IMG/VR virus record: IMGVR_UViG_3300021197_001995
Coordinates: 95,042 to 159,041 of that record
Strand: one strand, 5' to 3'
From: a virus
DNA length: 64,000 bases
The translations under genes were made by a program, and so were the position numbers. Below are positions 20,175-51,454 of the stretch, one piece after another; positions within the stretch are counted from its first letter, which is position 1, and the number at the start of each line of letters is the position of its first letter. The notes below the pieces were generated by a model. The model was not told the DNA's origin and searched no databases. It saw nothing but the letters and a program-made list of their open reading frames with translations.

Positions 20175-20422
20175 TGGGATTTGGAAGAAAGATTAAGAGA
20201 AAACAGATGTTAGTCGCAAGGAAACAATTTATGAAAAGCTTCAAGTCCAGTATGAGCAATTTCAAGAAGCAGATCAAGTGCACGGCCTGCGACCGCCCAC
20301 CAGAACCGGAAGAGAAGATAGATAATTGGCACATAAATAAAGAGTCAGAAAACATTGACTTAATATGTACGACCTGTTATAATGAAGGTGAATCAAAAAA
20401 GGAAAGTGATAATGAAAATTAG
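20174..20422 (+). CDS. hypothetical Zn-finger protein
   Basis: CTAC...CTTC. Confidence 0.6.
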   Translation: MGFGRKIKRKQMLVARKQFMKSFKSSMSNFKKQIKCTACDRPPEPEEKIDNWHINKESENIDLICTTCYNEGESKKESDNEN

Positions 20423-21440: not shown

Positions 21441-21766
21441 TAGAAGATTTCAAACCGGTAACTTTTACTTTCAAGTGTCACGAGAAGGAGTCCGCGGACT
21501 TAAAAGTAAGACTAAAATATGACAAGCTTCAGCAGACTGAATTTTTTGTGTCCATTCTAAAGATGTACATAGACAATGACCCTTTGCTTCTGAGCGTAGT
21601 AGAGAGGATAAAAGGAGAGAAGAGCAAGATGGGAAAGAAAAAACTAAAGAACACTAAAAGAGACTTAGACTTAGGAAGGGAAATTATGAAGAATTTAGGA
21701 ATTACAGAATCAGACAAACAAAATGTTTTTGACTTGATCGAATCTGACTGGCCGGAACATGAATAA
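21437..21766 (+). CDS. hypothetical protein (possible ribbon-helix-helix-like)
   Basis: 109 aa ORF with ATGA overlap. Confidence 0.55.
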   Translation: MIEDFKPVTFTFKCHEKESADLKVRLKYDKLQQTEFFVSILKMYIDNDPLLLSVVERIKGEKSKMGKKKLKNTKRDLDLGREIMKNLGITESDKQNVFDLIESDWPEHE

Positions 21767-22004
21767 ATATGTACTGCCACAATGTGCCAAAAACTGCTTG
21801 AAAGCTGAAAAATCCTGCGATAAATCTGATTGCCGGATGTGGGTAAATTACGGAGAGGACGTCAATTGTTCCCTGGTTTCAATCTACACTAATGGCGCGA
21901 TGACTCTCGAAGAGGTAGCCAAGAGAATGGAGTTATCTTTCGTCAGGATCTCGCAGATAGAAAAGCAGGCAATAAATAAACTTTCAAAAAGGATAAAAAT
22001 CTGA
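21759..22004 (+). CDS. stand-alone sigma70 region-4 HTH protein with Cys-rich N-terminus
   Basis: MTLEEVAKRMELSFVRISQIEKQAINKL matches the region 4.2 pattern TLEEVG....VTRERIRQIE.KAL.KL. Confidence 0.8.
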   Translation: MNKYVLPQCAKNCLKAEKSCDKSDCRMWVNYGEDVNCSLVSIYTNGAMTLEEVAKRMELSFVRISQIEKQAINKLSKRIKI

Positions 22005-22023
22005 CGTTTATACTGCACCTAAA

Positions 22024-22030
22024 CTATTTA
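22024..22030 (+). promoter_or_regulatory. putative phage late-promoter motif CTAWTTA (representative copy)
   Basis: Same heptamer upstream of ORFs at 22024, 23482, 27012, 28546, 33821, 34542, 57723, 58978, 59365 and 62821; variant at 44969. Confidence 0.55.
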
Positions 22031-22083
22031 TAGTTGTATTATACCAATGGTCACCACTTTGAACAACAAGGAGATTATATAAA

Positions 22084-22632
22084 ATGAGTGATAAAAAACT
22101 GCTAAAAGAAAACACGATTCGCCGCTTCATGAAGCTTGCAAACGTGGAAGCCTTAACGGATAATTTCATCCAAACAAACGAGACCGTCGCGCCAGGCGTG
22201 GTTCTAAAAGAAGAGGCACCGATGGAAGATGAAATCGGCATGGAAGAAGAACCAGCTGAGGAAGAGATGGAAATGGAGATGGATGATGACATGGGCGACG
22301 AGATGGGCGGCGACATGGACGAGCCTGCTGCAGCCGACATCAGCCTGACAGAAGAAGAAGCACAACTTCTCATCGATCTTGGAGAGAGACTACAATCTGC
22401 TATGAGCGAAGGCTCAGAGGAAGAAGGTCTGGAAGACGACGACGAGGACTTTGATCTCGAAGACGACGACATGGGATCTGACCTTGATGCAGAGGACGAA
22501 GGCCCAGCTGAAGAGGAGCCAGAAGCCCCAGGAATGCGATCCGACGTTTATGAGAACAAAGAAGCGATTATAGAGGAGGTTCTTAAGAGAGTCACCAAAA
22601 GAATCGTATCTAAAAAGATGAATCGCAACTAG
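22084..22632 (+). CDS. highly acidic protein, putative head scaffold / internal protein
   Basis: D/E/M-rich low-complexity core; N-terminal 'LLKENTIRRFMKLA'; preceded by CTATTTA. Confidence 0.55.
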   Translation: MSDKKLLKENTIRRFMKLANVEALTDNFIQTNETVAPGVVLKEEAPMEDEIGMEEEPAEEEMEMEMDDDMGDEMGGDMDEPAAADISLTEEEAQLLIDLGERLQSAMSEGSEEEGLEDDDEDFDLEDDDMGSDLDAEDEGPAEEEPEAPGMRSDVYENKEAIIEEVLKRVTKRIVSKKMNRN

Positions 22633-22666
22633 AAAGTAAGAAGTGAAAGCTCGTTGGTAACATATA

Positions 22667-22696
22667 AAGCCCCGCCCTAAAAAGTGGGGTTTTTTA
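22667..22696 (+). terminator. intrinsic terminator
   Basis: AAGCCCCGC-loop-GTGGGGTT followed by a T run. Confidence 0.75.
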
Positions 22697-22792
22697 TTTA
22701 TCAACTAAAAGAATTAAAATCTGAAAAAAGAGTGGAAAAGACAACAAACTTCTGATAGTATAAATAAACATCAAAAAAGAGAGACCACAACA

Positions 22793-23485
22793 ATGATCGA
22801 AAGAGTAACATCTCAACCTGAGAAGAAGAAAAAACCTGGAAAGAAGGATAAAGCCAAAGAGAAAGACGATAATCAAATAGTTATAGTCAACAACATACAA
22901 CTGCCTCAACACAGTGACCAAGAACTCAGGACTATAAATCTCTACGGTGACATCACTGAACAAAAAGGCGCCGACGTGGTGGCCGCTCTATTATATTTAG
23001 AAAGTAACTCGCACACAGTAATGCAACAAGACCCCACGGATCCAGAAAGTAAAGACGTTATCGTTGCGAGATCTATCTCCATGATAATCTCCACCCATGG
23101 CGGCATAGCCTCCGACATGTTTTCCATCTTGGACATTATGGACTTGATAAAACAGCGCACATGTGACGTCGAGACCTTCGGCCTAGGCAAGGTAATGTCG
23201 GCCGGCGTGCCTATACTTGCTGCCGGCACACCCGGGAGACGTAAAGTCGGCCGAAATTGCCGCATAATGCTTCACAATGTGATGGCAGGAACAGGAGGGA
23301 CGATCTTTTCCATGGAAAATGAACTTGACGAGATAAGATGGGTCCAAGACCGATACATCGAGACTCTTGCGAGCTACACAAAACTTACGCCATCTAAAAT
23401 AAAAAAGCTTCTAAAGACCCAAAAAGACGTGTACATCTCGGCAGAAGAGGCTATAAAGATGGGAATTGCAGATGAGATCATCTAA
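22793..23485 (+). CDS. clpP: ClpP-family protease
   Basis: INLYGDI, STHGG, VMSAG (Ser), IMLHN (His), KDVYISAEEAIKMGIADEII (Asp). Confidence 0.9.
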   Translation: MIERVTSQPEKKKKPGKKDKAKEKDDNQIVIVNNIQLPQHSDQELRTINLYGDITEQKGADVVAALLYLESNSHTVMQQDPTDPESKDVIVARSISMIISTHGGIASDMFSILDIMDLIKQRTCDVETFGLGKVMSAGVPILAAGTPGRRKVGRNCRIMLHNVMAGTGGTIFSMENELDEIRWVQDRYIETLASYTKLTPSKIKKLLKTQKDVYISAEEAIKMGIADEII

Positions 23486-23505
23486 TTATACAGAGGAGAA
23501 GTAAG

Positions 23506-25374
23506 ATGGCATGGCACGAAGAATTTTTATCAGAGAATAACAAGAAATCTACCATATCAACCATGGGAGACCTTTTCAGTCTTATCGAAGAGGTCTTCGA
23601 GGTAGAGAAGGGTAGACTGTTTAAGTCGAACAAAGACCCAATCGCTCTGCTCAAAGAGCAATTCCTCAACGAACGAAAGTCTATGACTATGACCTTGGAT
23701 GCTATTCCTGAAATAGCAGTCACAGAATTAGGCTGGACTGATGTCACAGGCGCCGGCGGCGACAATCCAGTTAACGGCCCTGAGCGAAAAAAGCTGTTGC
23801 AGTTCTTGGAGAACATTCCAGGCGGAGACTTTGTAGAAAAGATTAAGTCACTTTCCAATTTCTATGACGATCCTGATGCTGCAATGCAAGAGATGTTTGG
23901 CGACGGGGGAAGCACTTCGACCGCACAACAGATAGCGGTAGCTTTATCTTATTTGGTCTTCTATAAGACGTTGACGAAGGTCATAGCGAATTTTAACGCT
24001 GCCTCTGCGGGCTTTAGTTTCGAAGCGTTCCTAGCTGTCTTGATGGAAGGCGAGCAAATACCAGCCAACACTGGGACTATTGCGGACTTTCTTTCTAGGA
24101 GTGACGGTACCGCCATGCCTGTAAGTCTGAAGTTGTATCAAGACGGAAACCTGCACGTTGGAGGTTCTTTCAGAGATCTCGTTGGAGATATAACGAACCC
24201 TAAATTTGATAACGATCTTATGCGTTATGTTGCCGTGACGAAAAGGTTCGAAGGCGGCCAGAAAGAAGGTCAGGACGTCAATGGTTTTTTGAAGTGGTAT
24301 AGGTTTGACTTTACTTTAGATAACATTTTCGATATACTGTCCAGGTCCTCAAAACACTCCAGATTATGTATTCAGTTGCCAAGAGGTGGCCAAGCTTTCA
24401 TAGACGATTTACCAGGCATCGCAGCGCCATCAGCAGAAGAGATGGAAAACAAATACGCCCTAGCTTTTCAAAAAGAAATGGACGTTATGAACGTGAAATT
24501 ACCAGAAGAACTGCAAGTTGATGAGTTATTCACGCAACAATTTCTTAAAAATCTAAGTTGGGCCACGCAACTAAGTGATAAATTTTTTGCACAATTCGAC
24601 CCTGATGCGAAGTTATCAGACGAACAAAAAGCTTCCCCCGATTACGAACCAAGAGCACCTTACGTAAAGAGGGGCACCTCTCCCATGTACGGCTCGGGAG
24701 CGCCTTTCCTCGCGCTAATAGACGTCGTACTAGGGACTCTAGCCCAAGTTAATGACACGCTACCTGAGCCTAGGTACAACCTGGAGGACAAGGCTATCAC
24801 AAACCGTATGAACGGTCTTGCTATCAGTATAGCAAGACGTGCCAAAGCTGCCAACAACGGTGGTGGCGCCGCTGATAAGATTAGCATACTAAAGCAGTAT
24901 TCTGCTACGAAAGAGACCTTGCGGCGCAATAAGCGTCTGAACTTAAAGAAGAACTGGTTCTCACCAGAGGAGTCGGCAAAACAATACAACGCTATGAGTA
25001 GAGAGCAGAAGCTGGCAGCCTTAGTGCAGACCCGAGGCTTTCTTTCAACAGAGCAGTTTGGTCTAACTCAGAACATGGTAGCAGAAATTGACACTTACAG
25101 CAACAGCCGCGTTCTTGGACCTAATCAAGATAAAGCATTCTTCGGAGTTATAAACGTTGGTAGGAAGAACACACAGAAAATGCTAAACAGAGTTACAGGA
25201 ATCCTTAACGAGTCCTTGTTTGACATTTTTGTGAACGTAAAATCAATACAAGACAACACCTATGCTTATATCGCCGGCGGCATGTCGGAAGACGCAAAAG
25301 CAGAAGAAGCAATTAAGGCTTCTGGAAATGTTATCTCAAAGACAGAAGAACTTCAATCAACAAAAGATAAATAA
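23506..25374 (+). CDS. hypothetical protein (probable virion/late protein)
   Basis: 622 aa ORF after CTAATTA with GAGGAG RBS. Contains 'FEAFLA...IAD...VSLKL', weakly PD-(D/E)XK-like. Confidence 0.6.
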   Translation: MAWHEEFLSENNKKSTISTMGDLFSLIEEVFEVEKGRLFKSNKDPIALLKEQFLNERKSMTMTLDAIPEIAVTELGWTDVTGAGGDNPVNGPERKKLLQFLENIPGGDFVEKIKSLSNFYDDPDAAMQEMFGDGGSTSTAQQIAVALSYLVFYKTLTKVIANFNAASAGFSFEAFLAVLMEGEQIPANTGTIADFLSRSDGTAMPVSLKLYQDGNLHVGGSFRDLVGDITNPKFDNDLMRYVAVTKRFEGGQKEGQDVNGFLKWYRFDFTLDNIFDILSRSSKHSRLCIQLPRGGQAFIDDLPGIAAPSAEEMENKYALAFQKEMDVMNVKLPEELQVDELFTQQFLKNLSWATQLSDKFFAQFDPDAKLSDEQKASPDYEPRAPYVKRGTSPMYGSGAPFLALIDVVLGTLAQVNDTLPEPRYNLEDKAITNRMNGLAISIARRAKAANNGGGAADKISILKQYSATKETLRRNKRLNLKKNWFSPEESAKQYNAMSREQKLAALVQTRGFLSTEQFGLTQNMVAEIDTYSNSRVLGPNQDKAFFGVINVGRKNTQKMLNRVTGILNESLFDIFVNVKSIQDNTYAYIAGGMSEDAKAEEAIKASGNVISKTEELQSTKDK

Positions 25375-25379
25375 ACCCC

Positions 25380-25408
25380 TTGACATTTCAACCGAAATGC
25401 ATTATAGT
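25380..25408 (+). promoter_or_regulatory. sigma70-type promoter of groEL
   Basis: TTGACA-17-TATAGT. Confidence 0.75.
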
Positions 25409-25438
25409 ATATACATACAAACATGAAAGCGAGTCAAA

Positions 25439-27007
25439 ATGACCACACAACTCAGCCACGGAACTGAACTCCGCAATAAAGTTCTTGAAGGCGTAAACAC
25501 TCTGGCGGATTATGTAGCAACAACGCTTGGACCAAAAGGTCAAAACGTACTCATTCACGAAAAGGGCCGAAGCCCGTTTGTGACTAAAGATGGAGTCACG
25601 GTCGCACAGAGTATAAACTTTGAAGACCCGCACGTTAATGCAGGAGCACAGGTTGTAAAGCAAGTTTCAGCCCAAACAAACGCGGAAGCTGGAGACGGTA
25701 CCACCACAAGTACCGTATTAGCCAGAGAAATACTTTCTCAAGCGAACAAACACATCGCTTCAGGGGTATCTCCCATAGAAATCAAAAGAGGCCTAGAACA
25801 GTGCATGCTCGAAGCGACAGAGATAGTGAAGGAAATCTCTACACCGATCTCGTCCGTAGAAGATGTAAAGCACATCGCAACCATCTCGGCAAATAACGAC
25901 GAAACTATTGGAACGCTTGTCGCCACCGCAGTAGATAAGGTAGGCAAGAACGGCTCCATCACAATCGAAGAAGCACGTAGTCATGAAACGAGTTTAGATC
26001 TTGTGGAAGGATTTAGATTCTCTGGCGGATATGCAGCCACCGCATTTGTTACGGATGAAAGAAGGGGTGTTTGCAGATATGAGAACCCAATGTTCTTTAT
26101 TACTGACTCAAAGGTAGAACAGATAAACCAAATACTGCCGGCATTAGAACTAGCAGCCCGAGAAGGGCAGCCGTTTGTTATAGTTGCAGATGAAATAGAA
26201 GGTCAAGCGCTTGCTGCACTAATTATGAATACCGTTCGAGGTTCTATGAAGGTTGTGGCAATCAAAGCGCCACACTATGGTGAGCAAAGAAGAGCGATCA
26301 TGAGTGACCTAGCGGTCTCAACCGGGGCAACATTCTTCCAACAAAAGATGGGGAACAAGTTGACTGAGGTTTCTTTGAGTGATTTTGGTAAAGCAACCAG
26401 TATAGAAATCACAAAGAACATGACGACGGTTGTTGACGGGGAGGGTTCACATGAAGAAATCGACCAGACAATTGAAAAGGTTAAGGAAGAAATCAAACAA
26501 ACTGATGACATCCATGAAGCAGGGCGACTCCAAGATCGTGTTACTCGCCTCTCTTCTGGTGTTGCTATTATCCGCGTGGGTGCATCATCTCAAGTAGAGA
26601 TGATAGAAAAGAAGCACCGGATTGAAGATGCGTTAGAAGCCGTCAGATCTGCTCAGAAAGAAGGAGTGGTCCCTGGAGGTGGAACCACCTTATTGCGTAT
26701 CGCATCCGCCGTAGCTCCAAACTTCGTAAATGAAGACCAAGCTACAGCGCTCTCAATTTTCCGCCGGGCCCTCGCGGCACCATTCAGAAAGATGGCAAGC
26801 AATGCAGGAATGTCGCCGGAAGTAGCGATGTTGACAGTTCAGGAATGTAAAGAATCCGAGGGTATTGATTTCTCCACTGGAGACAAGGTTGACCTCTTAC
26901 AGGCTGGGATTATCGACCCTGCAAAAGTAACCCGCTGCGCCCTTAAGAATGCAGTATCAGTTTCTTCCACTCTTTTATTAACTAATCATAGTATTGTACA
27001 AGGGTAG
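25439..27007 (+). CDS. groEL: chaperonin GroEL
   Basis: TLGPKG, TKDGVTVA, AGDGTTT, GVVPGGG, GIIDPAKV. Confidence 0.97.
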   Translation: MTTQLSHGTELRNKVLEGVNTLADYVATTLGPKGQNVLIHEKGRSPFVTKDGVTVAQSINFEDPHVNAGAQVVKQVSAQTNAEAGDGTTTSTVLAREILSQANKHIASGVSPIEIKRGLEQCMLEATEIVKEISTPISSVEDVKHIATISANNDETIGTLVATAVDKVGKNGSITIEEARSHETSLDLVEGFRFSGGYAATAFVTDERRGVCRYENPMFFITDSKVEQINQILPALELAAREGQPFVIVADEIEGQALAALIMNTVRGSMKVVAIKAPHYGEQRRAIMSDLAVSTGATFFQQKMGNKLTEVSLSDFGKATSIEITKNMTTVVDGEGSHEEIDQTIEKVKEEIKQTDDIHEAGRLQDRVTRLSSGVAIIRVGASSQVEMIEKKHRIEDALEAVRSAQKEGVVPGGGTTLLRIASAVAPNFVNEDQATALSIFRRALAAPFRKMASNAGMSPEVAMLTVQECKESEGIDFSTGDKVDLLQAGIIDPAKVTRCALKNAVSVSSTLLLTNHSIVQG

Positions 27008-34552: not shown

Positions 34553-34756
34553 GTGAAATCAAAGCAAGTAAAATGCAACAAGACCTACTGGTCAACCCGC
34601 CACAAAGAAAAGTGTGTCTGTATCTCCATCGCCCGTTGGCTAGTGGAGTTACAATTCAGAGACCCTGCCAAATCAGGATGGTACCACTGTCAAGAGATAG
34701 AAGAAGTACCAAAATCACAAGAAAAAGTTATTGACATTACAGACTTAATAAGGTAG
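34553..34756 (+). CDS. hypothetical protein
   Basis: 67 aa ORF starting 4 nt after CTAATTA. Confidence 0.5.
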   Translation: MKSKQVKCNKTYWSTRHKEKCVCISIARWLVELQFRDPAKSGWYHCQEIEEVPKSQEKVIDITDLIR

Positions 34757-34759
34757 AAT
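34731..34759 (+). promoter_or_regulatory. sigma70-type promoter heading the cassette array
   Basis: TTGACA-17-TAGAAT. Confidence 0.75.
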
Positions 34760-34765
34760 AGTATT

Positions 34766-34933
34766 ATGGAATTTGGATTTATCTTTTTAATTCTCGCGAT
34801 TCTGTTTTTGCGGAACAGGATCAAGGCAGCAATCCTTCAAAGCCAGAAGGAAGATTTTGTCAGAGAAGTTATTCGCCGCGTTGACCAAAAAAAGAAACTG
34901 GATGAGCTTTATGGAAGAAATGAAGATAGGTGA
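34766..34933 (+). CDS. small membrane protein (55 aa, probably leaderless)
   Basis: MEFGFIFLILAILFL...; ends NEDR* with a 14-nt overlap onto the first MKIGDLV cassette. Confidence 0.55.
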   Translation: MEFGFIFLILAILFLRNRIKAAILQSQKEDFVREVIRRVDQKKKLDELYGRNEDR

Positions 34934-35138
34934 CTTGGTGATTGACACTTGGCTGAACCAAGTAGCCCTCCTTATCTCTGAGCCCAGAGCATCCCTCGAC
35001 TCACAAGAAGACCAAAAGCGTTTAGGCGTCATGGCTGGAGATGAGTATTACGTTGTAGACGTACTCTTGGCCGACGGAACTAGAGATCTTGCACTCTGTG
35101 ATGACCTGGAGGCTATCAGTGAACATAGATGTGGGTGA
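34920..35138 (+). CDS. MKVGDLV-family cassette protein
   Basis: MKIGDLV...YVVDVLL...LEAISEHRCG*. Confidence 0.75.
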   Translation: MKIGDLVIDTWLNQVALLISEPRASLDSQEDQKRLGVMAGDEYYVVDVLLADGTRDLALCDDLEAISEHRCG

Positions 35139-35286
35139 CTTTGTGCAGTACCGCGCCGCGTCAGGCGAGGTAATGGGTTACGGAATCATTGTCAAAGTGA
35201 CTGAGTATTGGCACATACTTGTGGACCAACACACAGGCAAGAGAGAGCATTGGTGTAACACTTTAATGAGAAAGATTGTACCGTGA
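35119..35286 (+). CDS. MKVGDLV-family cassette protein
   Basis: GTG start after GGAGG; NIDVGDFV...GIIV. Confidence 0.7.
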   Translation: MNIDVGDFVQYRAASGEVMGYGIIVKVTEYWHILVDQHTGKREHWCNTLMRKIVP

Positions 35287-35420
35287 TTGATGGATTTTTA
35301 TTTGAATTTCAAATGGGAGAGATTCTAGACGCAGTGAGGTTGACTCTTTGTACCATAGGGCTCCTCACTGGCATAGGCCTTTGGGTACATGCAACTTATT
35401 TCAGGGAAGAAAAGCAATGA
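35283..35420 (+). CDS. small membrane peptide (45 aa) inserted in the array
   Basis: GTGA and ATGA overlaps on either side; hydrophobic LTLCTIGLLTGIGLWV. Confidence 0.45.
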   Translation: MIDGFLFEFQMGEILDAVRLTLCTIGLLTGIGLWVHATYFREEKQ

Positions 35421-35599
35421 AAATTGGCGATCTAGTACGATGGCGCGCCGATGATGGAATGGGCATCATTTTGCAGACCCGAATCGTCAGCAAAATCACC
35501 GGAAGTTCTATCGTTTATGTGCTTTGGTTTGACGGAAATACAACGGGACCGATAGAAAACGACCATGATGAACTGGAGTTGGTAAGTGAAAGTCGGTGA
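35417..35599 (+). CDS. MKVGDLV-family cassette protein
   Basis: MKIGDLVRW...GIIL...YVLW...LELVSESR*. Confidence 0.8.
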   Translation: MKIGDLVRWRADDGMGIILQTRIVSKITGSSIVYVLWFDGNTTGPIENDHDELELVSESR

Positions 35600-35753
35600 T
35601 TTGGTGAAACAAACACCGCGCTGGTCTCCCTCGCGTTTTGGTATTGTAACTCATGACCTGAAGAACGACAGGTGTATGGTCCTTTTCTTTGACACCAACA
35701 CTCAATACGATATGGACAAAAATTTGTTGGAGCTAGTCAGTGAAGGTCGGTGA
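35586..35753 (+). CDS. MKVGDLV-family cassette protein (55 aa, not in ORF track)
   Basis: MKVGDLVKQ...GIV...MVLF...LELVSEGR*. Confidence 0.8.
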   Translation: MKVGDLVKQTPRWSPSRFGIVTHDLKNDRCMVLFFDTNTQYDMDKNLLELVSEGR

Positions 35754-35919
35754 TTTGATTGAATGGGGTATGCACTCGGTATGCCCGAAAGCTATAGTGA
35801 TTGGTTTTGATGGCGATTTCGCAAAGCTTTTCTGGCTTCCGAATCCGAGGTTCAGTAACGGGGGTAGAGTGTCACTGGTTGAAAAGCAAGAATTGGAGGT
35901 AATCAGTGAAAGTCGGTGA
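35740..35919 (+). CDS. MKVGDLV-family cassette protein (59 aa, not in ORF track)
   Basis: MKVGDLIEW...AIVIG...KLFW...LEVISESR*. Confidence 0.8.
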   Translation: MKVGDLIEWGMHSVCPKAIVIGFDGDFAKLFWLPNPRFSNGGRVSLVEKQELEVISESR

Positions 35920-36067
35920 CTTGGTGAGGTTATACCGCAACCATGACACGATTGGCATTGTCATCAGTATACTGCAAGGTAACGGGTATTTCGACGTTTT
36001 AAGGACAGACGGAGTGACAATCTTCGTCCACGAGTCATCTCTGGAGATAATCAGTGAAAGTCGGTGA
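35906..36067 (+). CDS. MKVGDLV-family cassette protein (53 aa, not in ORF track)
   Basis: MKVGDLVRL...GIVI...YFDVL...LEIISESR*. Confidence 0.8.
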   Translation: MKVGDLVRLYRNHDTIGIVISILQGNGYFDVLRTDGVTIFVHESSLEIISESR

Positions 36068-36248
36068 TTTAGTTTGTATAGCACTGCCAGCAAAGGAAAA
36101 AGGAAAGCCTGTTGGAATCATTCTCGGGTTCAGTGTTGACTGGCTTATCAACAGGTATGCTACCCCTGACTATAGAATACTGTGGAACCATGGTGGAATT
36201 AGCACCGCTTCAGAAATGCATTTGAGGAAATTAAATGAAAGTCGGTGA
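36054..36248 (+). CDS. MKVGDLV-family cassette protein
   Basis: MKVGDLV...GIIL...YRILW...LNESR*. Confidence 0.8.
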   Translation: MKVGDLVCIALPAKEKGKPVGIILGFSVDWLINRYATPDYRILWNHGGISTASEMHLRKLNESR

Positions 36249-36420
36249 TTTAGTAAAAGACAACCACCCAACAGGACAGGGGCGGACAGGAATAGTCATA
36301 GCCTCAGTACCACATTCAACCGCTCTAAATAAAGTGTTCAGGGTCTTGTGGCAAAACGGCAAAGTTGGCGACAACATCTGGGACTACGACTTGAAGCTAC
36401 TCAACGAAAAAAGGCCTTGA
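36235..36420 (+). CDS. MKVGDLV-family cassette protein
   Basis: MKVGDLV...GIVI...FRVLW...LLNEKRP*; the stop overlaps a -35 box. Confidence 0.8.
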   Translation: MKVGDLVKDNHPTGQGRTGIVIASVPHSTALNKVFRVLWQNGKVGDNIWDYDLKLLNEKRP

Positions 36421-36445
36421 CTTTCAATGACTTACCTGCTATACT
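36417..36445 (+). promoter_or_regulatory. sigma70-type promoter inside the array
   Basis: TTGACT-ttcaatgacttacctgc-TATACT. Confidence 0.8.
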
Positions 36446-36472
36446 TATAGTATAGAGAAATGGAGAAGTCAA

Positions 36473-36664
36473 ATGAAAATCGGTGATTTGGTGATGTGGC
36501 TAGACCCTTGGAAGACTAAACGCCATGGGTTGGTATTCGCGGTGATCCTGACTGATCCTGATAAGCCATGGCGAGGCAAAGAAGACTATTACGATGTGTT
36601 GGTTGACGGCAAGATTGAATTTTGCCACAGAAAAAACCTGGAGGTGCTTAGTGAAAGTCGGTGA
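36473..36664 (+). CDS. MKVGDLV-family cassette protein
   Basis: MKIGDLV...YDVLV...LEVLSESR*. Confidence 0.8.
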   Translation: MKIGDLVMWLDPWKTKRHGLVFAVILTDPDKPWRGKEDYYDVLVDGKIEFCHRKNLEVLSESR

Positions 36665-36839
36665 TTTGGTGCAGAACGGCCAAGGACACACAGGCATCGT
36701 GACAGGCATTGGCTATGCTGGCAACTGTCCGAGTTATCATGAATGTCCTTTCTTGAACCCGGATATTCACGTCGTAACCAGCCATGGCAAGAGATTGTGG
36801 AGCTACAAAGCATTGGAGGTTATCAGTGAAAGTCGGTGA
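36651..36839 (+). CDS. MKVGDLV-family cassette protein
   Basis: GTG start in the junction; ...LEVISESR*. Confidence 0.8.
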   Translation: MKVGDLVQNGQGHTGIVTGIGYAGNCPSYHECPFLNPDIHVVTSHGKRLWSYKALEVISESR

Positions 36840-37032
36840 CCTAGTGAAGAAGAGATGGGGCAAGATTGAACCACATCAGGCGGGGACAGTCGGCATCGTA
36901 ACCGGAAAGCACGTTGAACAACGCGGGCCCAACCCTGCGTTCCATGGCTACTGGCTTATGGTTATGTATCCGGGCCATCCTGTTTATCGTGAACGACCTG
37001 GTGAGTATGAGGTGATAAGTGAAAGTCGGTGA
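36826..37032 (+). CDS. MKVGDLV-family cassette protein
   Basis: GTG start in the junction; ...YEVISESR*. Confidence 0.8.
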   Translation: MKVGDLVKKRWGKIEPHQAGTVGIVTGKHVEQRGPNPAFHGYWLMVMYPGHPVYRERPGEYEVISESR

Positions 37033-37219
37033 TTTGGTGGAATCCCACAAGGGAGCACGCGGCATTGTTGTTGAGAGTGAACTGATGTATCCGAAACATC
37101 GCGACTCTCCGGTTGGTAGAGTCCGAGTTCATTGGCAAACTGAACCACCAGAGTGGACTCACCCCGGCCTATTCTTTAGTGTAATGTCGCTCAGGAAGAT
37201 AACCAATGAAAGTCGGTGA
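37019..37219 (+). CDS. MKVGDLV-family cassette protein
   Basis: MKVGDLV...GIVV...VRVHW...TNESR*. Confidence 0.8.
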   Translation: MKVGDLVESHKGARGIVVESELMYPKHRDSPVGRVRVHWQTEPPEWTHPGLFFSVMSLRKITNESR

Positions 37220-37418
37220 TGTTGTGGCCTGGACACCAACCAGGGGTGTCTTCGGCCACCAGAAGGTTAAATTTGTCGGGATTGTGACGGGCGAGCGAGT
37301 AGAAAACAAATTCGGCGAGCCAGACCGGGTACCTGTGATTTGGAGTGAATCAACGATACCAATGATGACTGATGTAAGAGACGTAAAAGTTATTGAGGCA
37401 TTCAATGAAAGTCGGTGA
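37206..37418 (+). CDS. MKVGDLV-family cassette protein
   Basis: MKVGDVV...GIV...VIW...FNESR*. Confidence 0.8.
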   Translation: MKVGDVVAWTPTRGVFGHQKVKFVGIVTGERVENKFGEPDRVPVIWSESTIPMMTDVRDVKVIEAFNESR

Positions 37419-37587
37419 TTTAGTTCAGTGGTACACGGAGTATGCTGATTGTACCACCACAGACTTAGGTGTCGTCCGCCAAGTTATGGTAGATCAGGTC
37501 TTTATTGTATGGCAAACTGGAGACGGAAATGGCTGGTTCAGTCAAGGACATCCAAGCATAGGAGTTATTAATCATGCAGCCGGGTGA
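37405..37587 (+). CDS. MKVGDLV-family cassette protein
   Basis: MKVGDLV...GVV...FIVW...INHAAG*. Confidence 0.8.
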   Translation: MKVGDLVQWYTEYADCTTTDLGVVRQVMVDQVFIVWQTGDGNGWFSQGHPSIGVINHAAG

Positions 37588-37768
37588 CTTGGTGGTGTGG
37601 AAATGGAATGGTAAATCACAACTTCACAAAACAGGAATCATTGTTTCAGACTACCTCCAGTGCCAAGATTTTGATGGGAATCATTATAAAAATGTTTACT
37701 GGTTCGATAATCAATGGGTCCGACCAATCAGACCAGAGTATTTAGAGGTTCTCAATGAAAGTCGGTGA
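37574..37768 (+). CDS. MKVGDLV-family cassette protein
   Basis: MQPGDLV...GIIV...VYW...LEVLNESR*. Confidence 0.8.
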   Translation: MQPGDLVVWKWNGKSQLHKTGIIVSDYLQCQDFDGNHYKNVYWFDNQWVRPIRPEYLEVLNESR

Positions 37769-37955
37769 CTTGGTAAGAGAAAAAGGACTTCAGGAGCGGA
37801 CTGGTATCATTGTAGAAGATACCTTCACCAGCCGATATGATGGTGGCCGAGCGAGAATATACAAAGTGCTGTGGAACAAGTTGAGTCCAGCATCACCTAC
37901 CTTGACTAGTGGCGCGTGGGCTAATCAGTTGGAGGTCATCAATGAAAGTCGGTGA
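37755..37955 (+). CDS. MKVGDLV-family cassette protein
   Basis: MKVGDLV...GIIV...YKVLW...LEVINESR*. Confidence 0.8.
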   Translation: MKVGDLVREKGLQERTGIIVEDTFTSRYDGGRARIYKVLWNKLSPASPTLTSGAWANQLEVINESR

Positions 37956-38142
37956 TTTGGTGAGGTTATCTCGCGGTGTAGGTAACCATTTTGACTTGGA
38001 AAGTTATGTTGCCATTTTAGTTAAGAAGCGACCAAGAGCCGACTCTTATGAGTACGACTGGATCGTTCTGACGGATGGTAGGTACATTGCACTAGGCAGA
38101 CAAATAGAACACTCCGCGAGGATACTCAGTGAAAGTCGGTGA
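37942..38142 (+). CDS. MKVGDLV-family cassette protein
   Basis: MKVGDLV...AILV...WIVL...ILSESR*. Confidence 0.8.
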   Translation: MKVGDLVRLSRGVGNHFDLESYVAILVKKRPRADSYEYDWIVLTDGRYIALGRQIEHSARILSESR

Positions 38143-38329
38143 TATTGTGAGGTGGTCCCCCATAGAGGCAGCATACCATAAATCTTGTTTTGGTTCAGCC
38201 GGTTTAGACTTGACAAGTGATAGAAAATGTGGTATTATCGTAGATAGAAATCCTTATGTGTTCTTTGTTCTTTGGCAAGACAAAGAACTTTTAGCACAAA
38301 AACCAAACACAATCGAGGTAATCAGATGA
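38129..38329 (+). CDS. MKVGDLV-family cassette protein
   Basis: MKVGDIV...GIIV...FVLW...IEVIR*; contains an internal TTGACA-17-TATTAT at 38210-38238. Confidence 0.8.
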   Translation: MKVGDIVRWSPIEAAYHKSCFGSAGLDLTSDRKCGIIVDRNPYVFFVLWQDKELLAQKPNTIEVIR

Positions 38330-38517
38330 AAAAACTAATCTTATCAACACTTCTCATTTTAACTGCCGGATGTGTTGAAGCACCAGAACGAGCAGAATAT
38401 AAATACGCATCCGAAGAAGCCTGGGACCATTGTTATGATAGTTGCCCTGGTTCTGACTGTCCTTGTATTCTTGGAGAAGGTTACACATGGTACATCAGCC
38501 CCGAGGTCGGAGAGTGA
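38326..38517 (+). CDS. small Cys-rich lipoprotein inserted in the array
   Basis: MKKLILSTLLILTAGC lipobox. Confidence 0.7.
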   Translation: MKKLILSTLLILTAGCVEAPERAEYKYASEEAWDHCYDSCPGSDCPCILGEGYTWYISPEVGE

Positions 38518-38729
38518 AAATTAAAGTAGGAGACTTAGTAAACATCAGGCCACACCTCGCCGGCGATGCTCACTCAGGCGAATCGAACAGTGTGATGATA
38601 CTCGAATCGAAAGTGGGTATTGTCAAGAGTAGGCTAAATGGAAACGGGTACTACGATGTCTTACTCAGTAGCGGCAAGGTTGTCTTTACCGCATACGCAA
38701 ACTTGGAGGTCATAAATGAAAGTCGGTGA
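38514..38729 (+). CDS. MKVGDLV-family cassette protein
   Basis: MKIKVGDLV...GIV...YYDVLL...LEVINESR*. Confidence 0.8.
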   Translation: MKIKVGDLVNIRPHLAGDAHSGESNSVMILESKVGIVKSRLNGNGYYDVLLSSGKVVFTAYANLEVINESR

Positions 38730-38892
38730 TTTAGTGAAATACGATCATCACAACTGGTCTGACTGGTACGGAATCATACTTCGCGAAATACCAGGAACCG
38801 ATGAGAGAAGAATGGTTATGTGGAACAGGGACAATAGCGTGATAACATCGACACCGAAAAGGGATTTGGAGCTAGTCAATGAAAGTCGGTGA
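38716..38892 (+). CDS. MKVGDLV-family cassette protein (58 aa, not in ORF track)
   Basis: MKVGDLVKY...GIIL...MVMW...LELVNESR*. Confidence 0.8.
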   Translation: MKVGDLVKYDHHNWSDWYGIILREIPGTDERRMVMWNRDNSVITSTPKRDLELVNESR

Positions 38893-39088
38893 TTTGGTCG
38901 CGCTGTCAGCGTATGGCAAGAAAGTAAAACGAACAGGTTGGGTTCAACCTGGTGACGTAGGGATTATCAAGAAGGTTAGGAACAGTATCTGGCTAACTTA
39001 TGAGATTATGTGGAATCGAAGTCGGTGGGAGTACTCCTACCATCATCAACACTGTTTTGACCGCAAAGATTTAAAGTTTGTTAAGTAG
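38879..39088 (+). CDS. MKVGDLV-family cassette protein (last in the array)
   Basis: MKVGDLV...GII...YEIMW...DLKFVK*. Confidence 0.8.
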   Translation: MKVGDLVALSAYGKKVKRTGWVQPGDVGIIKKVRNSIWLTYEIMWNRSRWEYSYHHQHCFDRKDLKFVK

Positions 39089-39098
39089 TTAATTTTAC

Positions 39099-39127
39099 TT
39101 GACTTTTTCTACCAACAGTGTTATTAT
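39099..39127 (+). promoter_or_regulatory. sigma70-type promoter
   Basis: TTGACT-17-TATTAT. Confidence 0.7.
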
Positions 39128-39153: not shown

Positions 39154-39336
39154 ATGAAATTCGAGATTGGTGAAATTGTTGAAATCGAATATGGCGATTG
39201 CAACGCTGGCAAGAAAGCCGTTCTTTTGCAGTTTAATGATGACAAAGTGTTTGGCACCGGCGAGTTGGTTAAAATCATGTTCATCGGAGAGAACAAGCCA
39301 ACCTATACACTTTTAGATAGGATTGCAAAGCTATGA
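39154..39336 (+). CDS. KOW/SH3-like small protein
   Basis: FEIGEIVEIEYG..AGKKAV (KOW-like). Confidence 0.65.
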   Translation: MKFEIGEIVEIEYGDCNAGKKAVLLQFNDDKVFGTGELVKIMFIGENKPTYTLLDRIAKL

Positions 39337-40010
39337 TGACGCACCAAGAAACAAGTACCATGTTTGACTACCTCAACTCGGTCAGTGAAAAAATGACTTA
39401 TGGGGATTCCCAGTTCATGAAGTCTCTACACTGGCACTTTCAAAAGAACGGTGATCTTTCTGGTGGCCAAGACTACCACCTTGAGAAACTCGGGACTAAG
39501 TATAGTATGGAAGAGCTTTCAAGACAAGAACAGTTTGAGCAGAACTACAGCGACGAACTTAGACTCGCCGCGCTCAGGTGTGCTAGATATTATGATGTGC
39601 AACATCCTCGATACTATGGAAATATTGTTGATAAAGTTCTTAATGACCCATCGAACCACACGCTCAATTACAACGAGTTTAACAAAATGTGCAACAACAA
39701 GTATGCTAAGAAGATTCTGGCAGCATACGATACGCCACACAAGTTTTCATCCGGTGACATGGTTCAAATTCGCTCGAACAACAGGATAGACATCGCAAAC
39801 ACGAACACCAAGGACGGTCACGTCGCCAAAGGCACCCGGTCAACGTGGCGGCTGGCCAACAAGATTTGCATGGTTCTTGAAGTGGATTCAAGACCCATTA
39901 CTAGGCCAGCAAAGGGCGCAAGGATTTATAAGGTTCTAATTATTGATGAGACGTCTCCAGTTTACGCTCACGAATCAGACTTGAAGAAGGTCCGGAGGTC
40001 AAAGAAATGA
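39333..40010 (+). CDS. hypothetical protein with C-terminal SH3-like domain
   Basis: FSSGDMVQ...YKVL...ESDLKK. Confidence 0.65.
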   Translation: MMTHQETSTMFDYLNSVSEKMTYGDSQFMKSLHWHFQKNGDLSGGQDYHLEKLGTKYSMEELSRQEQFEQNYSDELRLAALRCARYYDVQHPRYYGNIVDKVLNDPSNHTLNYNEFNKMCNNKYAKKILAAYDTPHKFSSGDMVQIRSNNRIDIANTNTKDGHVAKGTRSTWRLANKICMVLEVDSRPITRPAKGARIYKVLIIDETSPVYAHESDLKKVRRSKK

Positions 40011-44979: not shown

Positions 44980-45225
44980 ATGATTGCTTTCAAACCAGGG
45001 GACTTGGTAGCCTGTTTTATTACTAACACACAGGTCTATGAAGAATTACTAATGTGGGGGATCGTCCTGCGAGTAACTAGAGAATTGAAAGACGTTCTGG
45101 TGCTCGACAACATGGGCAACACACATTGGTACCCATCTCACCGCTGGCAGAAATTATCTAAACAAAAATCAAAGAAAACACTTGACATTACAGGCATACT
45201 AGCGTATAATAGTAGTACAAGTTAG
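44980..45225 (+). CDS. SH3-like small protein
   Basis: FKPGDLV...GIVL...VLVL. Confidence 0.6.
   Translation: MIAFKPGDLVACFITNTQVYEELLMWGIVLRVTRELKDVLVLDNMGNTHWYPSHRWQKLSKQKSKKTLDITGILAYNSSTS
45182..45210 (+). promoter_or_regulatory. sigma70-type promoter
   Basis: TTGACA-17-TATAAT. Confidence 0.8.
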
Positions 45226-45318: not shown

Positions 45319-45888
45319 ATGGGATCAGTAAATCCAGTGTGCCTCGCAGAAATAATTGACTTACACAAGAGAGAAAAAAACAAAGATGGTGTGAGCCCAT
45401 GGCTCAACTCAAGGAACGAATCTTTCAGACATCTCGATACCCCGCAGGATAAAGGTACAGTCGGAGTTAAGCTGTACATGGCCCACTTGCTCAGCCGCGG
45501 CTACGAGGTTGAGATTGTAAGTGACCAGGGAGACATAAGGTACAGGAAGCCCGGAGGTGCCTGGATCAAGGATGAAGTCAAAACAGCTAGTGCATCTATA
45601 AAAGTCCTAAAGAGTGGAGATTGGAGTTCTTACCATTGGTTTAATCAAGTCAGGCCCAATCAAGAAGGTTGGGACGGGGTGACACTGGTTTCCGTTTGGC
45701 CAAACCATACAGAAATCTATAGATTATCGAGGGAGGATTATCTGCGAAGCAAGATGATCGGATCTGCTGGCATCAGTTCGGGCCACACAGGGACAGAAGA
45801 ACTCGACCAGGTTAAACTGATTAGCAACAGCAACACTTTCAACTATGACGAGTGGAGTTGTATCTACACAGACAAGGAGACAAAGTGA
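45319..45888 (+). CDS. PD-(D/E)XK restriction endonuclease-like protein
   Basis: KGTVG...GDI...DEVKTAS...FNQVR; coupled to the methyltransferase. Confidence 0.6.
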   Translation: MGSVNPVCLAEIIDLHKREKNKDGVSPWLNSRNESFRHLDTPQDKGTVGVKLYMAHLLSRGYEVEIVSDQGDIRYRKPGGAWIKDEVKTASASIKVLKSGDWSSYHWFNQVRPNQEGWDGVTLVSVWPNHTEIYRLSREDYLRSKMIGSAGISSGHTGTEELDQVKLISNSNTFNYDEWSCIYTDKETK

Positions 45889-46931
45889 CAGACAGTAAAA
45901 GATTGAGAGGTTTGGTCGAAAGTGTACTTTCGTCTGCAAACGCAGACATGCCAGAAGAAGAAGCTGAACGACTGGCTAAAACGATGATGACTGCAATAGG
46001 AAGTGAGTTCTTCTACGGGCAAATTGGAAACAATGTGAAAGCCGGCCACCGCAACAAGCAGTCTTACGCAAACAAGCGAACGTCAGGCAAGGAGCAGTAT
46101 TACACTAGCCAAAACGTCGTGGACATCTGCCTGGAAGAAGTGCAGAAACATGTAGATTTGTCCTCCGTGAATCTTGTTGAACCTTGCGGCGGTACCGGCG
46201 AGTTCATCGACGGTCTGATTCGACTTGGAGTGGATGAGAACAACATAACTTCGTTCGATATTGAGCCAAAGCACGAGCTGGTTAAGCAGGGCGATTATCT
46301 AGAACAAGACCTTTCAGGCGTCACCAACCTGGTTTCGATCACGAACCCACCATTCGGACGTGCCTCGTCACTAGCAAAGAAGTTTTTCAATCACGATGCT
46401 AAGTTCTGCACTCACATCTGTTACTTGATACCGAAGGCTTGGAGGAAGTGGTCTGTGCACAATTCTCTTGATAAGAATTTCCATTTGGTAGCAGACATAG
46501 ACCTTCCTCAGAACTGCTTTTATCTTGCGGACGGCACGAGGAAAGAGAAAGACGTGCTAAACACTGTGTTTCAGATCTGGGAGAAGAGAGATTACCAGCG
46601 ACCAAAGATTAAGATACCAGATCACAAGTTGATACAGAAGGTGATACCTGAGATGGCCAAAGGCAATTTGAAAGTGGTTAAAGGTGCTAACTTTTCAATC
46701 GTCGCGTTCGGACATTCAGCGGGGCGATGTGAGGAAGTCACCGAGCCAGTCGTACCATACAAGACAACGACTATGTACTTGAAGATAAAAGATGAAAAAG
46801 TTAAAGACGCGCTAAGAAAGGTTGATCTTTCCAAGTTTTACAATAATGTGTCGTATGTACAAGCACTATCAATTCAGGAGATTAACTATGCTCTGAATGA
46901 GTTCTTTGGACTGTCGAATTTTAAATTTTAG
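45885..46931 (+). CDS. DNA amino-methyltransferase (N6-A / N4-C)
   Basis: QYYT, motif I EPCGGTGEF, motif IV TNPPFG; GTGA overlap with the upstream nuclease. Confidence 0.88.
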   Translation: MTDSKRLRGLVESVLSSANADMPEEEAERLAKTMMTAIGSEFFYGQIGNNVKAGHRNKQSYANKRTSGKEQYYTSQNVVDICLEEVQKHVDLSSVNLVEPCGGTGEFIDGLIRLGVDENNITSFDIEPKHELVKQGDYLEQDLSGVTNLVSITNPPFGRASSLAKKFFNHDAKFCTHICYLIPKAWRKWSVHNSLDKNFHLVADIDLPQNCFYLADGTRKEKDVLNTVFQIWEKRDYQRPKIKIPDHKLIQKVIPEMAKGNLKVVKGANFSIVAFGHSAGRCEEVTEPVVPYKTTTMYLKIKDEKVKDALRKVDLSKFYNNVSYVQALSIQEINYALNEFFGLSNFKF

Positions 46932-47003: not shown

Positions 47004-47234
47004 ATGATTCGCTCCAAAGCAGAGAAGCCGCCACAAAAGCTAGAGATAGATCTTACTGGACCAGAAGGTAACGCTTATGTTCTCATGGGTTACGCAGAGA
47101 GGTGGGGCAGACAACTAGGTTATAGTAGCCATAAAATCAAGAGCATAATTGACGAGATGAAGTTGACCAACTACGAAGGCTTGCTTTACACTTTTGACCG
47201 CGAGTTCGGAAGTTTTGTGACGTTATGGAGATAA
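47004..47234 (+). CDS. hypothetical phage protein
   Basis: IDLTGPEGNAYVLMG; follows TTGACT-17-TACTAT (46945). Confidence 0.7.
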   Translation: MIRSKAEKPPQKLEIDLTGPEGNAYVLMGYAERWGRQLGYSSHKIKSIIDEMKLTNYEGLLYTFDREFGSFVTLWR

Positions 47235-47964
47235 AAGTAGGAGATACAGTGACCATGGACCCGGGCTGTCAGCCTCCTGGTCTTTATGGGGTGGGCCTAA
47301 TCGTGCGTATTTTCCCCTGTGAGGACAACTGGTCTGGTCCTTCTCGTGCAACTGTTTATTGGCAAGCCAACGGTAAACCGCGCTTTGGTAGGTGCTCAAC
47401 TCGATACTTGTTAAGGTGGGTGAAATGATAAAAGTAGGTGACTTGGTAAGAATGCCCCCTAATCCTTCGTATTGGTGGGGAGGGCAAGTTGGTATAATTG
47501 ATATTGTAGAACCAGAGGGCAGCAGTTATGTTCAGTATCGTGTATGTGTTCCAGGTATCGGTTTCGCTCGCTTTGGCGATGTGACATTTGTGGAGGTGCT
47601 GAGTGAGAGTCGGTGATTTAGTGAGATATAATTATGACAGTCTCTGGGTAGGAAGAGTCGTGGAGCTTGGCGCGACGATGCACAAAGTTGCGTGGAACGA
47701 GAATCTGATTCATGGCAACGTAACTGAGTGGGTACCCAAGCACGCCCTGGAGATAGTGGATGAATAAGGGAGACATAGTGAGATACAAGCCTTGGCCTCA
47801 CGTAGAACTGCACGCGTCAGGATGCACAGGTGTGGTCACCCGCGGACGATATATCCTCGACGGCAATGAGTATGCAATAGTTGACGTTGTGTGGTCGAAA
47901 GACAGGCCACAGTGCCCAGCAGGTAAGGTCATGTGGGAATTTGAAGATGAATTGGAGAAAATAA

Positions 47965-48288
47965 ATGGATAAGAGAGAACCTTTTGAAGTGGGCGAAGAC
48001 CCGGTAAAAGCACGACGAAGGATAATGACGCAAGGCGTCAACATCCTGCATTCGCTCGTGGAATCATACAACGAAGGATTATTAGATGACCCTACTAGTG
48101 CTGCTAATCTTTGCACAATGTTTGCACTTGTTGCAGAAGGTAAGGTGACTGGCAACTTCGATGACGAAACCGGTTGCACAAAATGGAGCCTTACAGACAA
48201 TTACATGGCACGTCTTCGAGAGGCAGAAGAGATGATTTTGGGGTCAAAAATAATTAAAGGACCATGGGAGAAAACTGTTGACAATTAG
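47965..48288 (+). CDS. hypothetical protein
   Basis: 107 aa ORF; its 3' end overlaps TTGACA-17-TATAAT (48278-48306). Confidence 0.6.
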   Translation: MDKREPFEVGEDPVKARRRIMTQGVNILHSLVESYNEGLLDDPTSAANLCTMFALVAEGKVTGNFDDETGCTKWSLTDNYMARLREAEEMILGSKIIKGPWEKTVDN

Positions 48289-48334
48289 CTAAAACCCTGT
48301 TATAATTATATTATAACAATTGAGGAGCATTTAG

Positions 48335-48535
48335 ATGGAAGCCGTTTGTATTGATTGTCACACTGACTTTAACCCAAAGCGACTTGAGCTTGGGTATCGC
48401 ACTTGTCTTGATTGTGGTTCAACCCGCGCCCTCCGCGAGATGAATCGCAAGGCAAAGTGCTCTGCGCCTGCTTATAACAAGGGCGCATACCAGTATGTTG
48501 GCTCAGTTGAGGCTGCAAGGGGAGTGGGGCGATGA
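48335..48535 (+). CDS. Zn-finger protein (DksA/TraR C4-like)
   Basis: CIDC...PKRLELG..TCLDC. Confidence 0.6.
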   Translation: MEAVCIDCHTDFNPKRLELGYRTCLDCGSTRALREMNRKAKCSAPAYNKGAYQYVGSVEAARGVGR

Positions 48536-49054
48536 AGGTTGGAGACGTCGTCTGTTTGTCTGAATATGGTATTGCCAGAGACTTCAACAGGACTATCACG
48601 AACGATGATCCTTATCAGGTCGGCGTGATCGTGAAGGAGTTCCCTGGCGAGTATCCTTACAGGGTTCATTGGATGAAAGCTACCAATGCTCGCCGGTTTC
48701 TGGTCAATTCACACTCAAGACGGGAGTTGAAGTATGCAGGTCGGTAGCTTGATTAAATATTATGGCAACTGGACCGACATTGGCGTCGTATTATGGGTAA
48801 ACACCGAAGGCGGAACAGTCAAGGTCCACACCAATAATAAGATCTGCTGGTGGGTTATTAGCGGCTGCGAGGTAATCAGTGAAAGTCGGTGATTTAGTGA
48901 CATTCAAGGATACCTTCTATCGAGAGTCTTACGGCGCCGGCGTGGTACTTGAAAAGTACCACTCTTCAGATGACTATGGATTCGTGGTTCTCTTCTGCCG
49001 AGATGAGAAGGTCCATGTGCGCCAAGAAGAATTGAAAATAATCAATAAAAGTCC

Positions 49055-49083
49055 TTGACTTTCAATGGTTTAGCTGCTATACT
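49055..49083 (+). promoter_or_regulatory. sigma70-type promoter, near-copy of the one at 36417
   Basis: TTGACT-ttcaatggtttagctgc-TATACT. Confidence 0.8.
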
Positions 49084-51247: not shown

Positions 51248-51270
51248 GTAAGTATAGAAAATAAAGAATT

Positions 51271-51344
<74 letters not shown>

Positions 51345-51454
51345 CAAATATTAAATGGAGAAGTAGATGTTAGACTTTTTGGGAAGTGTTATGACGATCG
51401 CAGCCGGCTTGTGGGTCGGCCAACTGTTAATCGACTGGTATAGGAGAAAATAAG

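Follow-up and report, generated by a model that had tools for sequence, protein, structure and literature searches.

Tandem barrel-protein genes in a DnaE-encoding phage are joined by a dual-coding repeat at which whole cassettes are exchanged

We analysed the last 64 kb (positions 95,042 to 159,041; hereafter the window, whose own numbering is used throughout) of the 159-kb IMG/VR record IMGVR_UViG_3300021197_001995, which comes from an uncultured marine phage and is rated 88% complete. Between positions 34920 and 39088, reading of the open reading frames (ORFs) together with a hidden Markov model (HMM) revealed 21 paralogous genes of a single family, arranged head-to-tail and encoding proteins of 53–72 amino acids (aa) (Table 1); a first-pass annotation of the sequence had the sizes right but counted about 19 genes. 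These genes, which we call cassettes, share 24–49% aa identity within the window and are linked by a junction of around 33 nucleotides (nt) with the consensus TGGAGGTnATCA-RTG-AAA-GTC-GGT-GAY-TTR-GT. All 14 exact copies of its 13-nt core, TGAAAGTCGGTGA, that had been reported in the array were found (35587, 35907, 36055, 36236, 36652, 36827, 37020, 37207, 37406, 37756, 37943, 38130, 38717 and 38880), and scanning the window added a fifteenth at 48880. With up to two mismatches allowed, the core gave 22 matches, against 1.9 expected from shuffled sequences.

The same bases are read in three ways, as the first-pass annotation had proposed: as the end of the upstream protein (..LEVI(S/N)ESR*), as a GGAGG ribosome-binding sequence followed by an RTG start codon, and as the beginning of the downstream protein (MKVGDLV). 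Because the upstream TGA stop sits within the invariant Gly-Asp codons of the downstream gene (GGT-GAY), the overlap between neighbours is fixed at 14 nt, and this geometry is therefore a trait of the family. The start-to-start spacing of 3n+1, which had been listed as a regularity in its own right, is an arithmetic outcome of that fixed overlap and not an independent observation. In the array, the 14-nt overlap is exact at 16 junctions, 14 of them with the exact core; the remaining two are sequence variants that keep the geometry (AAG at 35740 and ATGCAGCCGGGTGA at 37574). Other overlaps measure 20 nt at one junction and 4 nt at four, and a promoter-bearing gap of 52 nt (36421–36472) lies within the array.

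Such a junction might be conserved for its coding duties alone. According to this alternative, the paralogues form a static set and are kept alike at their ends by dual-coding amino-acid constraints and the ribosome-binding site, with no shuffling. We counted codons in 690 cassettes from 118 junction-bearing loci, the window and two syntenic loci, whose neighbouring pairs include 267 with a 14-nt overlap, 27 with a 4-nt overlap and 10 with a 20-nt overlap. The constraints are real: at overlapped starts, GGT is used in 100% of cases because it supplies the TGA stop, the glutamate seven codons before the end is GAG in 98% because this forms GGAGG, and the two Val-3 codons that yield the upstream arginine (GTC and GTA) account for 93%. 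However, GTC outnumbers GTA by 8:1 at these starts, although both preserve the valine and the upstream arginine and the background usage of both codon pairs would favour GTA. A bias also persists at starts without an upstream gene, where GTC (49–66%), GGT (65–73%) and AAA (75–81%) exceed their backgrounds (20%, 30% and 52%, respectively) and Val-7 is GTC in only 0–3%; it survived the exclusion of all starts matching the search pattern. Amino acids account neither for the preference for GTC over GTA nor for the bias at non-overlapped starts, and the earlier suggestion that codon fixation exceeds protein-level need is upheld. Equally at odds with a static set, the ESR tail is lost at free ends: genes that do not overlap a successor carry 0–6 variable residues past the last strand, indicating that the tail is a by-product of the overlap that the protein does not need. 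Its presumed dispensability also agrees with two structural models, in which the tail is the least confident part (block predicted local distance difference test (pLDDT) scores of 67 and 86).

A signal acting in RNA, such as a translational-repressor operator or an initiation enhancer common to the family's mRNAs, could likewise constrain the junction and make any recombination incidental. The conservation is centred on the initiation region, the codon bias is kept where no upstream gene exists, and GTG starts make up 47% at overlapped junctions compared with 10% elsewhere, all of which would suit such a signal. By contrast, RNAalifold predicted 0 pairs across 14 junctions, that is, no conserved RNA structure and no attC-like hairpin, and an RNA signal leaves unexplained the mosaic pattern described below. 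A model of RegA-type regulators had no match in the phage, and none in control genomes either. We consider an RNA-level role unlikely to be the explanation, but it is compatible with recombination at the junction and does not exclude it.

Comparing cassette number and order across junction-bearing relatives, as the first-pass annotation had recommended, placed breakpoints in the repeat and revealed deletion, reordering and exchange of cassettes. Two contigs from different metagenomes, L019 and L022, are 99.5–100% identical over 11 kb and differ by one 176-nt cassette; the extra cassette in L019 lies between two copies of the direct repeat ATGAAAGTCGGTGATTTGGT (20 nt), and L022 retains a single copy. 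Two related genomes, G006 and G009, have DnaE polymerases that are 98.3% identical (synonymous divergence (dS) 0.08) and a 4-kb flank that is 98.7% identical, and their arrays are mosaics in which cassettes of 92–99% identity occupy different positions beside different neighbours. Between the window and these two genomes, DnaE is 72% identical with saturated synonymous sites (proportion of synonymous differences 0.82), and the thymidine kinase and UvdE genes are around 70% identical, whereas single cassettes reach 83–97% nt identity (dS 0–0.78) in scrambled order. Numbered as in Table 1, the cassettes run 4-5-6-7-8 ... 10-11 ... 17-18-20 in the window, 4-17 ... 20 ... 7-6 ... 18 ... 10 in G006 and 4 ... 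8 ... 11 ... 10 ... 17-7-6 in G009. In base-by-base alignments of the window with both genomes, the boundaries of identity fall within junctions; at one of them, an upstream cassette has kept its variant start codon (GTGAAG) although joined to a new downstream gene, so that the crossover maps to the GTCGGTGATTTGGT part of the junction. Across all loci, 35 cassette pairs with 80–98% nt identity had testable flanks on both sides: 22 had no similar flank, 11 had one and 2 had both. A syntenic relative found through a flanking protein (L127; 60% aa identity) has six cassettes in common, with W10 and W11 swapped. The precise one-cassette difference between direct repeats in nearly identical contigs, the reordering between genomes with nearly identical DnaE and the cassettes' far lower divergence than the genome backbone all run counter to a static set of paralogues, which we regard as very improbable.

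Shuffling could also be mimicked by assemblers that jump between co-occurring strains at a shared repeat, particularly one present many times per genome. At 20–33 nt, however, the repeat is shorter than the final k-mers of the usual assemblers and far shorter than the reads. Identical cassette orders also recur in independent metagenomes (L036 and L083 over 13 kb; L020 and L066 over 3.7 kb), another contig (L100) aligns to G009 along its full 3.9 kb, and the W7–W6 adjacency is common to G006 and G009. Given the short repeat and these recurring orders, assembly chimeras have very little probability as the source of the pattern.

We next turn to the encoded proteins. An AlphaFold model of W6, with 24 paralogues as the alignment, is a five-strand barrel (pLDDT 93.5), and the divergent W13 adopts the same topology with longer loops (pLDDT 82.7; lowest confidence in the first loop and the tail). 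Searched with Foldseek, the W6 model resembled YorP of prophage SPbeta (2heq), the KOW domains of Spt5/NusG and the PHF1 Tudor domain, with template modelling (TM) scores of 0.75–0.9 and E values of around 5e-3. The SH3/KOW/Tudor-like barrel that had been read from the sequence pattern is thus borne out by both models. In a viral library, the W6 model matched many unnamed proteins of 50–60 aa at 33–40% identity, and the ESM Atlas neighbours were all viral hypothetical proteins. None of ten cassettes significantly matched Pfam or PHROGs, and none matched KOW (PF00467) even at E values up to 1; weak Tad2-like (E 0.09) and Ski2-barrel matches were discarded. Searching 1.84 billion representative proteins with a profile recovered 3,370 clusters (50% identity; E up to 1e-3), almost all of 50–75 aa, from Tara, ENA and JGI metagenomes and named at most 'hypothetical protein'. 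Pooled over 24 orthologous cassette pairs, the ratio of nonsynonymous to synonymous substitution rates (dN/dS) was 0.18, indicating that the cassettes are real genes under purifying selection. 'Hypervariable', as the array had been called, is therefore wrong in the sense of fast-mutating, the diversity lying between old paralogues, and hypermutation of the diversity-generating retroelement type was rejected on the same ratio. Just past the array, a 225-aa protein (39333–40010) has a C-terminal domain that weakly matches the cassette HMM (E 0.002 for the orthologue at 9962–10648 of contig L128), suggesting that the barrel also exists fused to a larger protein.

The 19-nt junction sequence TGAAAGTCGGTGAYTTRGT occurs in at least 118 IMG/VR contigs. 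Among 50,697 cultured-phage records, megablast with the array and tblastn or blastn with one cassette and one junction returned nothing beyond chance, and when bacterial and archaeal genomes were scanned for the junction, only single chance-like matches and a few probably mis-binned contigs of Tara metagenome-assembled genomes appeared, with no host signal. A DnaE relative is encoded in all 12 junction-bearing contigs in which the polymerase could be looked for, with 62–73% identity to that of the window in genomes of 185–204 kb and 39–40% in genomes of 273–293 kb. Base-for-base conservation of the junction therefore extends over a deep clade of phages. In the 273–293-kb relatives, DnaE matches in two pieces (query residues 10–104 and from about 92 or 111 to about 1110; G001 221681–225166, G002 183861–187346, G003 167928–171371), with one in-frame TAG in G003; an intein, an intron or recoding could account for this. 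Each of the ten relatives that were examined has 5–25 family members (12–25 in the five rated complete), and in the first five examined these lie mostly near the genome ends. Within the window, an HMM built from the array found a second cluster of seven members (47225–49058) and weaker relatives at around 40.9–41.4 kb and 52.4 kb.

The surrounding genes encode a DnaE-type polymerase, a GroEL-like chaperonin, ClpP, UvdE, thymidine kinase and a GMP-reductase-like protein; the last, also similar to inosine monophosphate dehydrogenase, clusters with ClpP and the chaperonin at 20382–27007. The + strand from 33 to 50 kb is dense in near-consensus sigma-70 promoters (59, compared with 25 expected), of which 17 on the + strand match at 10 or more of 12 positions. 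This density fits an early region read by the host RNA polymerase, by which the array genes are probably transcribed early. Those predicted at 34731, 36417, 38210 and 39099 would split the array into operons, the first three heading sub-arrays. Perfect TTGACA-17-TATAAT promoters stand at 45182 and 48278 on the + strand. The promoter spacer together with the end of W8 (36320–36494) is present twice in G009 at 85–87% identity, which suggests that the spacer, too, acts as a mobile module. Farther along, a 359-aa ORF (45852–46931) carries the NPPF motif typical of N6-adenine DNA methyltransferases and had no Pfam match at E values up to 0.01. A tRNA-Arg segment (51253–51347) matches relatives at 91% identity, against around 70% for the genes that flank it; in G006 and G009 (loci L239 and L237) this tRNA lies between the thymidine kinase and UvdE genes and not in the tRNA cluster, suggesting that it was relocated or exchanged.

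Table 1. Cassettes (W1–W21), predicted promoters and accompanying ORFs of the array, and the second cluster
Feature	Position	Strand	Remarks
Sigma-70-like promoter TTGACA-17-TAGAAT, before first sub-array	34731..34759	+	11/12 consensus positions
W1, 72 aa	34920..35138	+	HMM E 3e-14; 20-nt overlap with W2, variant junction
W2, 55 aa, MNIDVGDFV...	35119..35286	+	HMM E 9e-10
Hydrophobic 45-aa non-family ORF within array	35283..35420	+	4-nt overlap each side
W3, 60 aa	35417..35599	+	
W4, 55 aa	35586..35753	+	95% nt identity with G006 and G009 cassettes; similarity ends in both junctions
W5, 59 aa	35740..35919	+	Junction variant GTGAAGGTC
W6, 53 aa	35906..36067	+	AlphaFold model, pLDDT 93.5
W7, 64 aa	36054..36248	+	
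W8, 61 aa	36235..36420	+	Closes sub-array 1; free end ..NEKRP
Sigma-70-like promoter TTGACT-17-TATACT, TG-extended, in 52-nt spacer	36417..36445	+	
W9, 63 aa	36473..36664	+	Start ATGAAAATCGGTGAT not overlapped by any upstream gene
W10, 62 aa	36651..36839	+	
W11, 68 aa	36826..37032	+	
W12, 66 aa	37019..37219	+	
W13, 70 aa	37206..37418	+	Second AlphaFold model, pLDDT 82.7
W14, 60 aa	37405..37587	+	
W15, 64 aa, MQPGDLV	37574..37768	+	Variant junction, 14-nt overlap kept
W16, 66 aa	37755..37955	+	
W17, 66 aa	37942..38142	+	In G006, comes directly after the W4 orthologue
W18, 66 aa	38129..38329	+	Free end ..IEVIR
Sigma-70-like promoter TTGACA-17-TATTAT, inside W18	38210..38238	+	Ahead of lipoprotein-like ORF
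Non-family 63-aa ORF, signal peptide and LTAGC lipobox, Cys-rich	38326..38517	+	4-nt overlap each side
W19, 71 aa, MKIKVGDLV	38514..38729	+	
W20, 58 aa	38716..38892	+	90% nt identity with a G006 cassette that has other neighbours
W21, 69 aa	38879..39088	+	Final gene of the array
Sigma-70-like promoter, after array	39099..39127	+	
Second cluster part 1, four members (47225–47428, 47425–47616, 47603–47767, 47760–47972)	47225..47972	+	One 14-nt junction
Second cluster part 2, three members (48532–48747, 48734–48892, 48879–49058)	48532..49058	+	Two 14-nt junctions; exact core 48880

Exchange at the junction could be the work of a dedicated, integron-like system in which a recombinase or nuclease recognises the site and cassettes move as circles. 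Breakpoints lying precisely in a conserved site, single cassettes moving between lineages and nucleotide conservation beyond coding needs would all be expected of it, and many adjoining ORFs belong to no known family. However, the 159-kb record (88% complete, and not searched for serine recombinases) yielded no tyrosine integrase (PF00589; controls matched), HNH or GIY-YIG nuclease, no conserved hairpin occurs at the junction, and the deletion in L022 keeps a single copy of the repeat, the outcome expected of plain homologous recombination. The lack of matches to these enzymes and the single remaining copy make general homologous recombination the simplest reading, and a site-specific system improbable. 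The first-pass likening of the array to an integron or a CRISPR array is not supported: none of these enzymes turned up in the 88%-complete record, the junction lacks a hairpin, the repeat is translated and the cassettes are under purifying selection.

Taken together, we find it highly likely that the array consists of early genes, probably translationally coupled, and that ordinary homologous recombination also uses their dual-coding junction as a substrate. The encoded proteins are diverged paralogues sharing a single small SH3/KOW/Tudor-like barrel of five strands, and each junction supplies at once the upstream protein's last strand and dispensable tail, the GGAGG site and start codon, and the downstream protein's first strand. 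Because its 20–33 nt recur around 15–20 times per genome and in related phages, the junction offers short homology for ordinary homologous recombination, which may proceed on this length of identity both within one genome and between co-infecting relatives. Crossovers there delete, insert, reorder or exchange whole genes, with the reading frame, the ribosome-binding site and the probable coupling preserved. The process is probably driven by homology or by RecA, the phage RecA (4654–5787) being a candidate catalyst; this gene had been reported nearby together with one for a single-stranded DNA-binding protein, and the latter was not confirmed, the Pfam model finding none. Frequent exchange would itself keep junctions uniform, which could explain their extra conservation without selection 'for' evolvability.

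Several points weigh against this account. The 14-nt overlap lies outside the usual −4, −1 and −8 spacings, longer overlaps lower coupling, and 14 nt is a non-optimal spacing for termination–reinitiation (review PMC12548453), so that translational coupling can be called plausible at most. All compared relatives are metagenome assemblies, and some of the 35 cassette pairs are non-independent because some contigs are near-duplicates. The structural matches of the model are to generic small barrels (E around 5e-3) and carry no functional information.

The cassettes turn over rapidly, move between lineages, lie mostly near the genome ends and are probably expressed early. Genes for host takeover or counter-defence would be expected to behave in this way, and the cassette proteins may accordingly bind host or defence proteins, which makes the family a ready library for functional screening. 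It is also very large and unnamed: barrel proteins of around 60 residues, in thousands of variants, from a little-known clade of large marine phages. A bolder proposal, which we advance only tentatively and consider rather doubtful, is that the junction is a selected exchange site, through which a whole clade of marine DnaE-encoding phages would pool thousands of binder mini-genes, swapped in frame by one universal coding adaptor of 20–33 nt, and so re-assort counter-defence and host-takeover repertoires without a dedicated recombinase.

Several known systems resemble the array in part. Like integrons, it is a row of small cassettes in the same orientation, which predicted promoters at the head of each sub-array may read, and cassette content and order vary between relatives; unlike in integrons, no adjacent IntI-type integrase was found in the 159-kb record (88% complete), there is no attC-type folded site, the cassettes are paralogues of one fold and the junction is translated. 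CRISPR arrays have non-coding repeats and short non-coding spacers, whereas here each 'spacer' is an intact ORF subject to purifying selection and the repeat is coding in two frames. The proteins share with YorP, the Spt5–NusG KOW domain and the PHF1 Tudor domain a five-strand barrel of around 50–60 residues, but in sequence they match neither KOW nor any other Pfam family significantly. In the poxvirus 'genomic accordion', a tandem viral gene array likewise changes copy number by recombination, giving recent, identical duplicates of one gene. The present array consists of old paralogues without recent duplicates, and recent duplication of the accordion type was rejected because window paralogues are merely 24–49% identical.

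The closest known mechanism is modular shuffling in T4-type phages, whose hyperplastic regions contain the promoter-early stem-loop (PeSL) cassettes that mediate it (Arbiol et al. 2010, PMC2839356; Comeau et al. 2014, PMC4122927). There, short conserved repeats lie between small non-essential early genes, and through homologous recombination at the repeats close relatives come to differ by whole genes that were inserted, deleted or replaced, a pattern matched here by L019/L022 and G006/G009; both systems occupy regions rich in sigma-70 promoters. Mini-circles have been shown for PeSLs (PMC2839356, PMC4122927). PeSLs, however, are non-coding, each with a promoter and a terminator hairpin, and flank unrelated genes whose function is not known, whereas the junction described here has neither hairpin nor promoter, promoters being confined to a few spacers, and every cassette belongs to one protein family. 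Repeat-mediated modular shuffling, known from these non-coding elements, thus operates here through a repeat that is itself coding, in two frames at once, and that contains the ribosome-binding site with start and stop, so that every crossover would yield intact, expressed genes.

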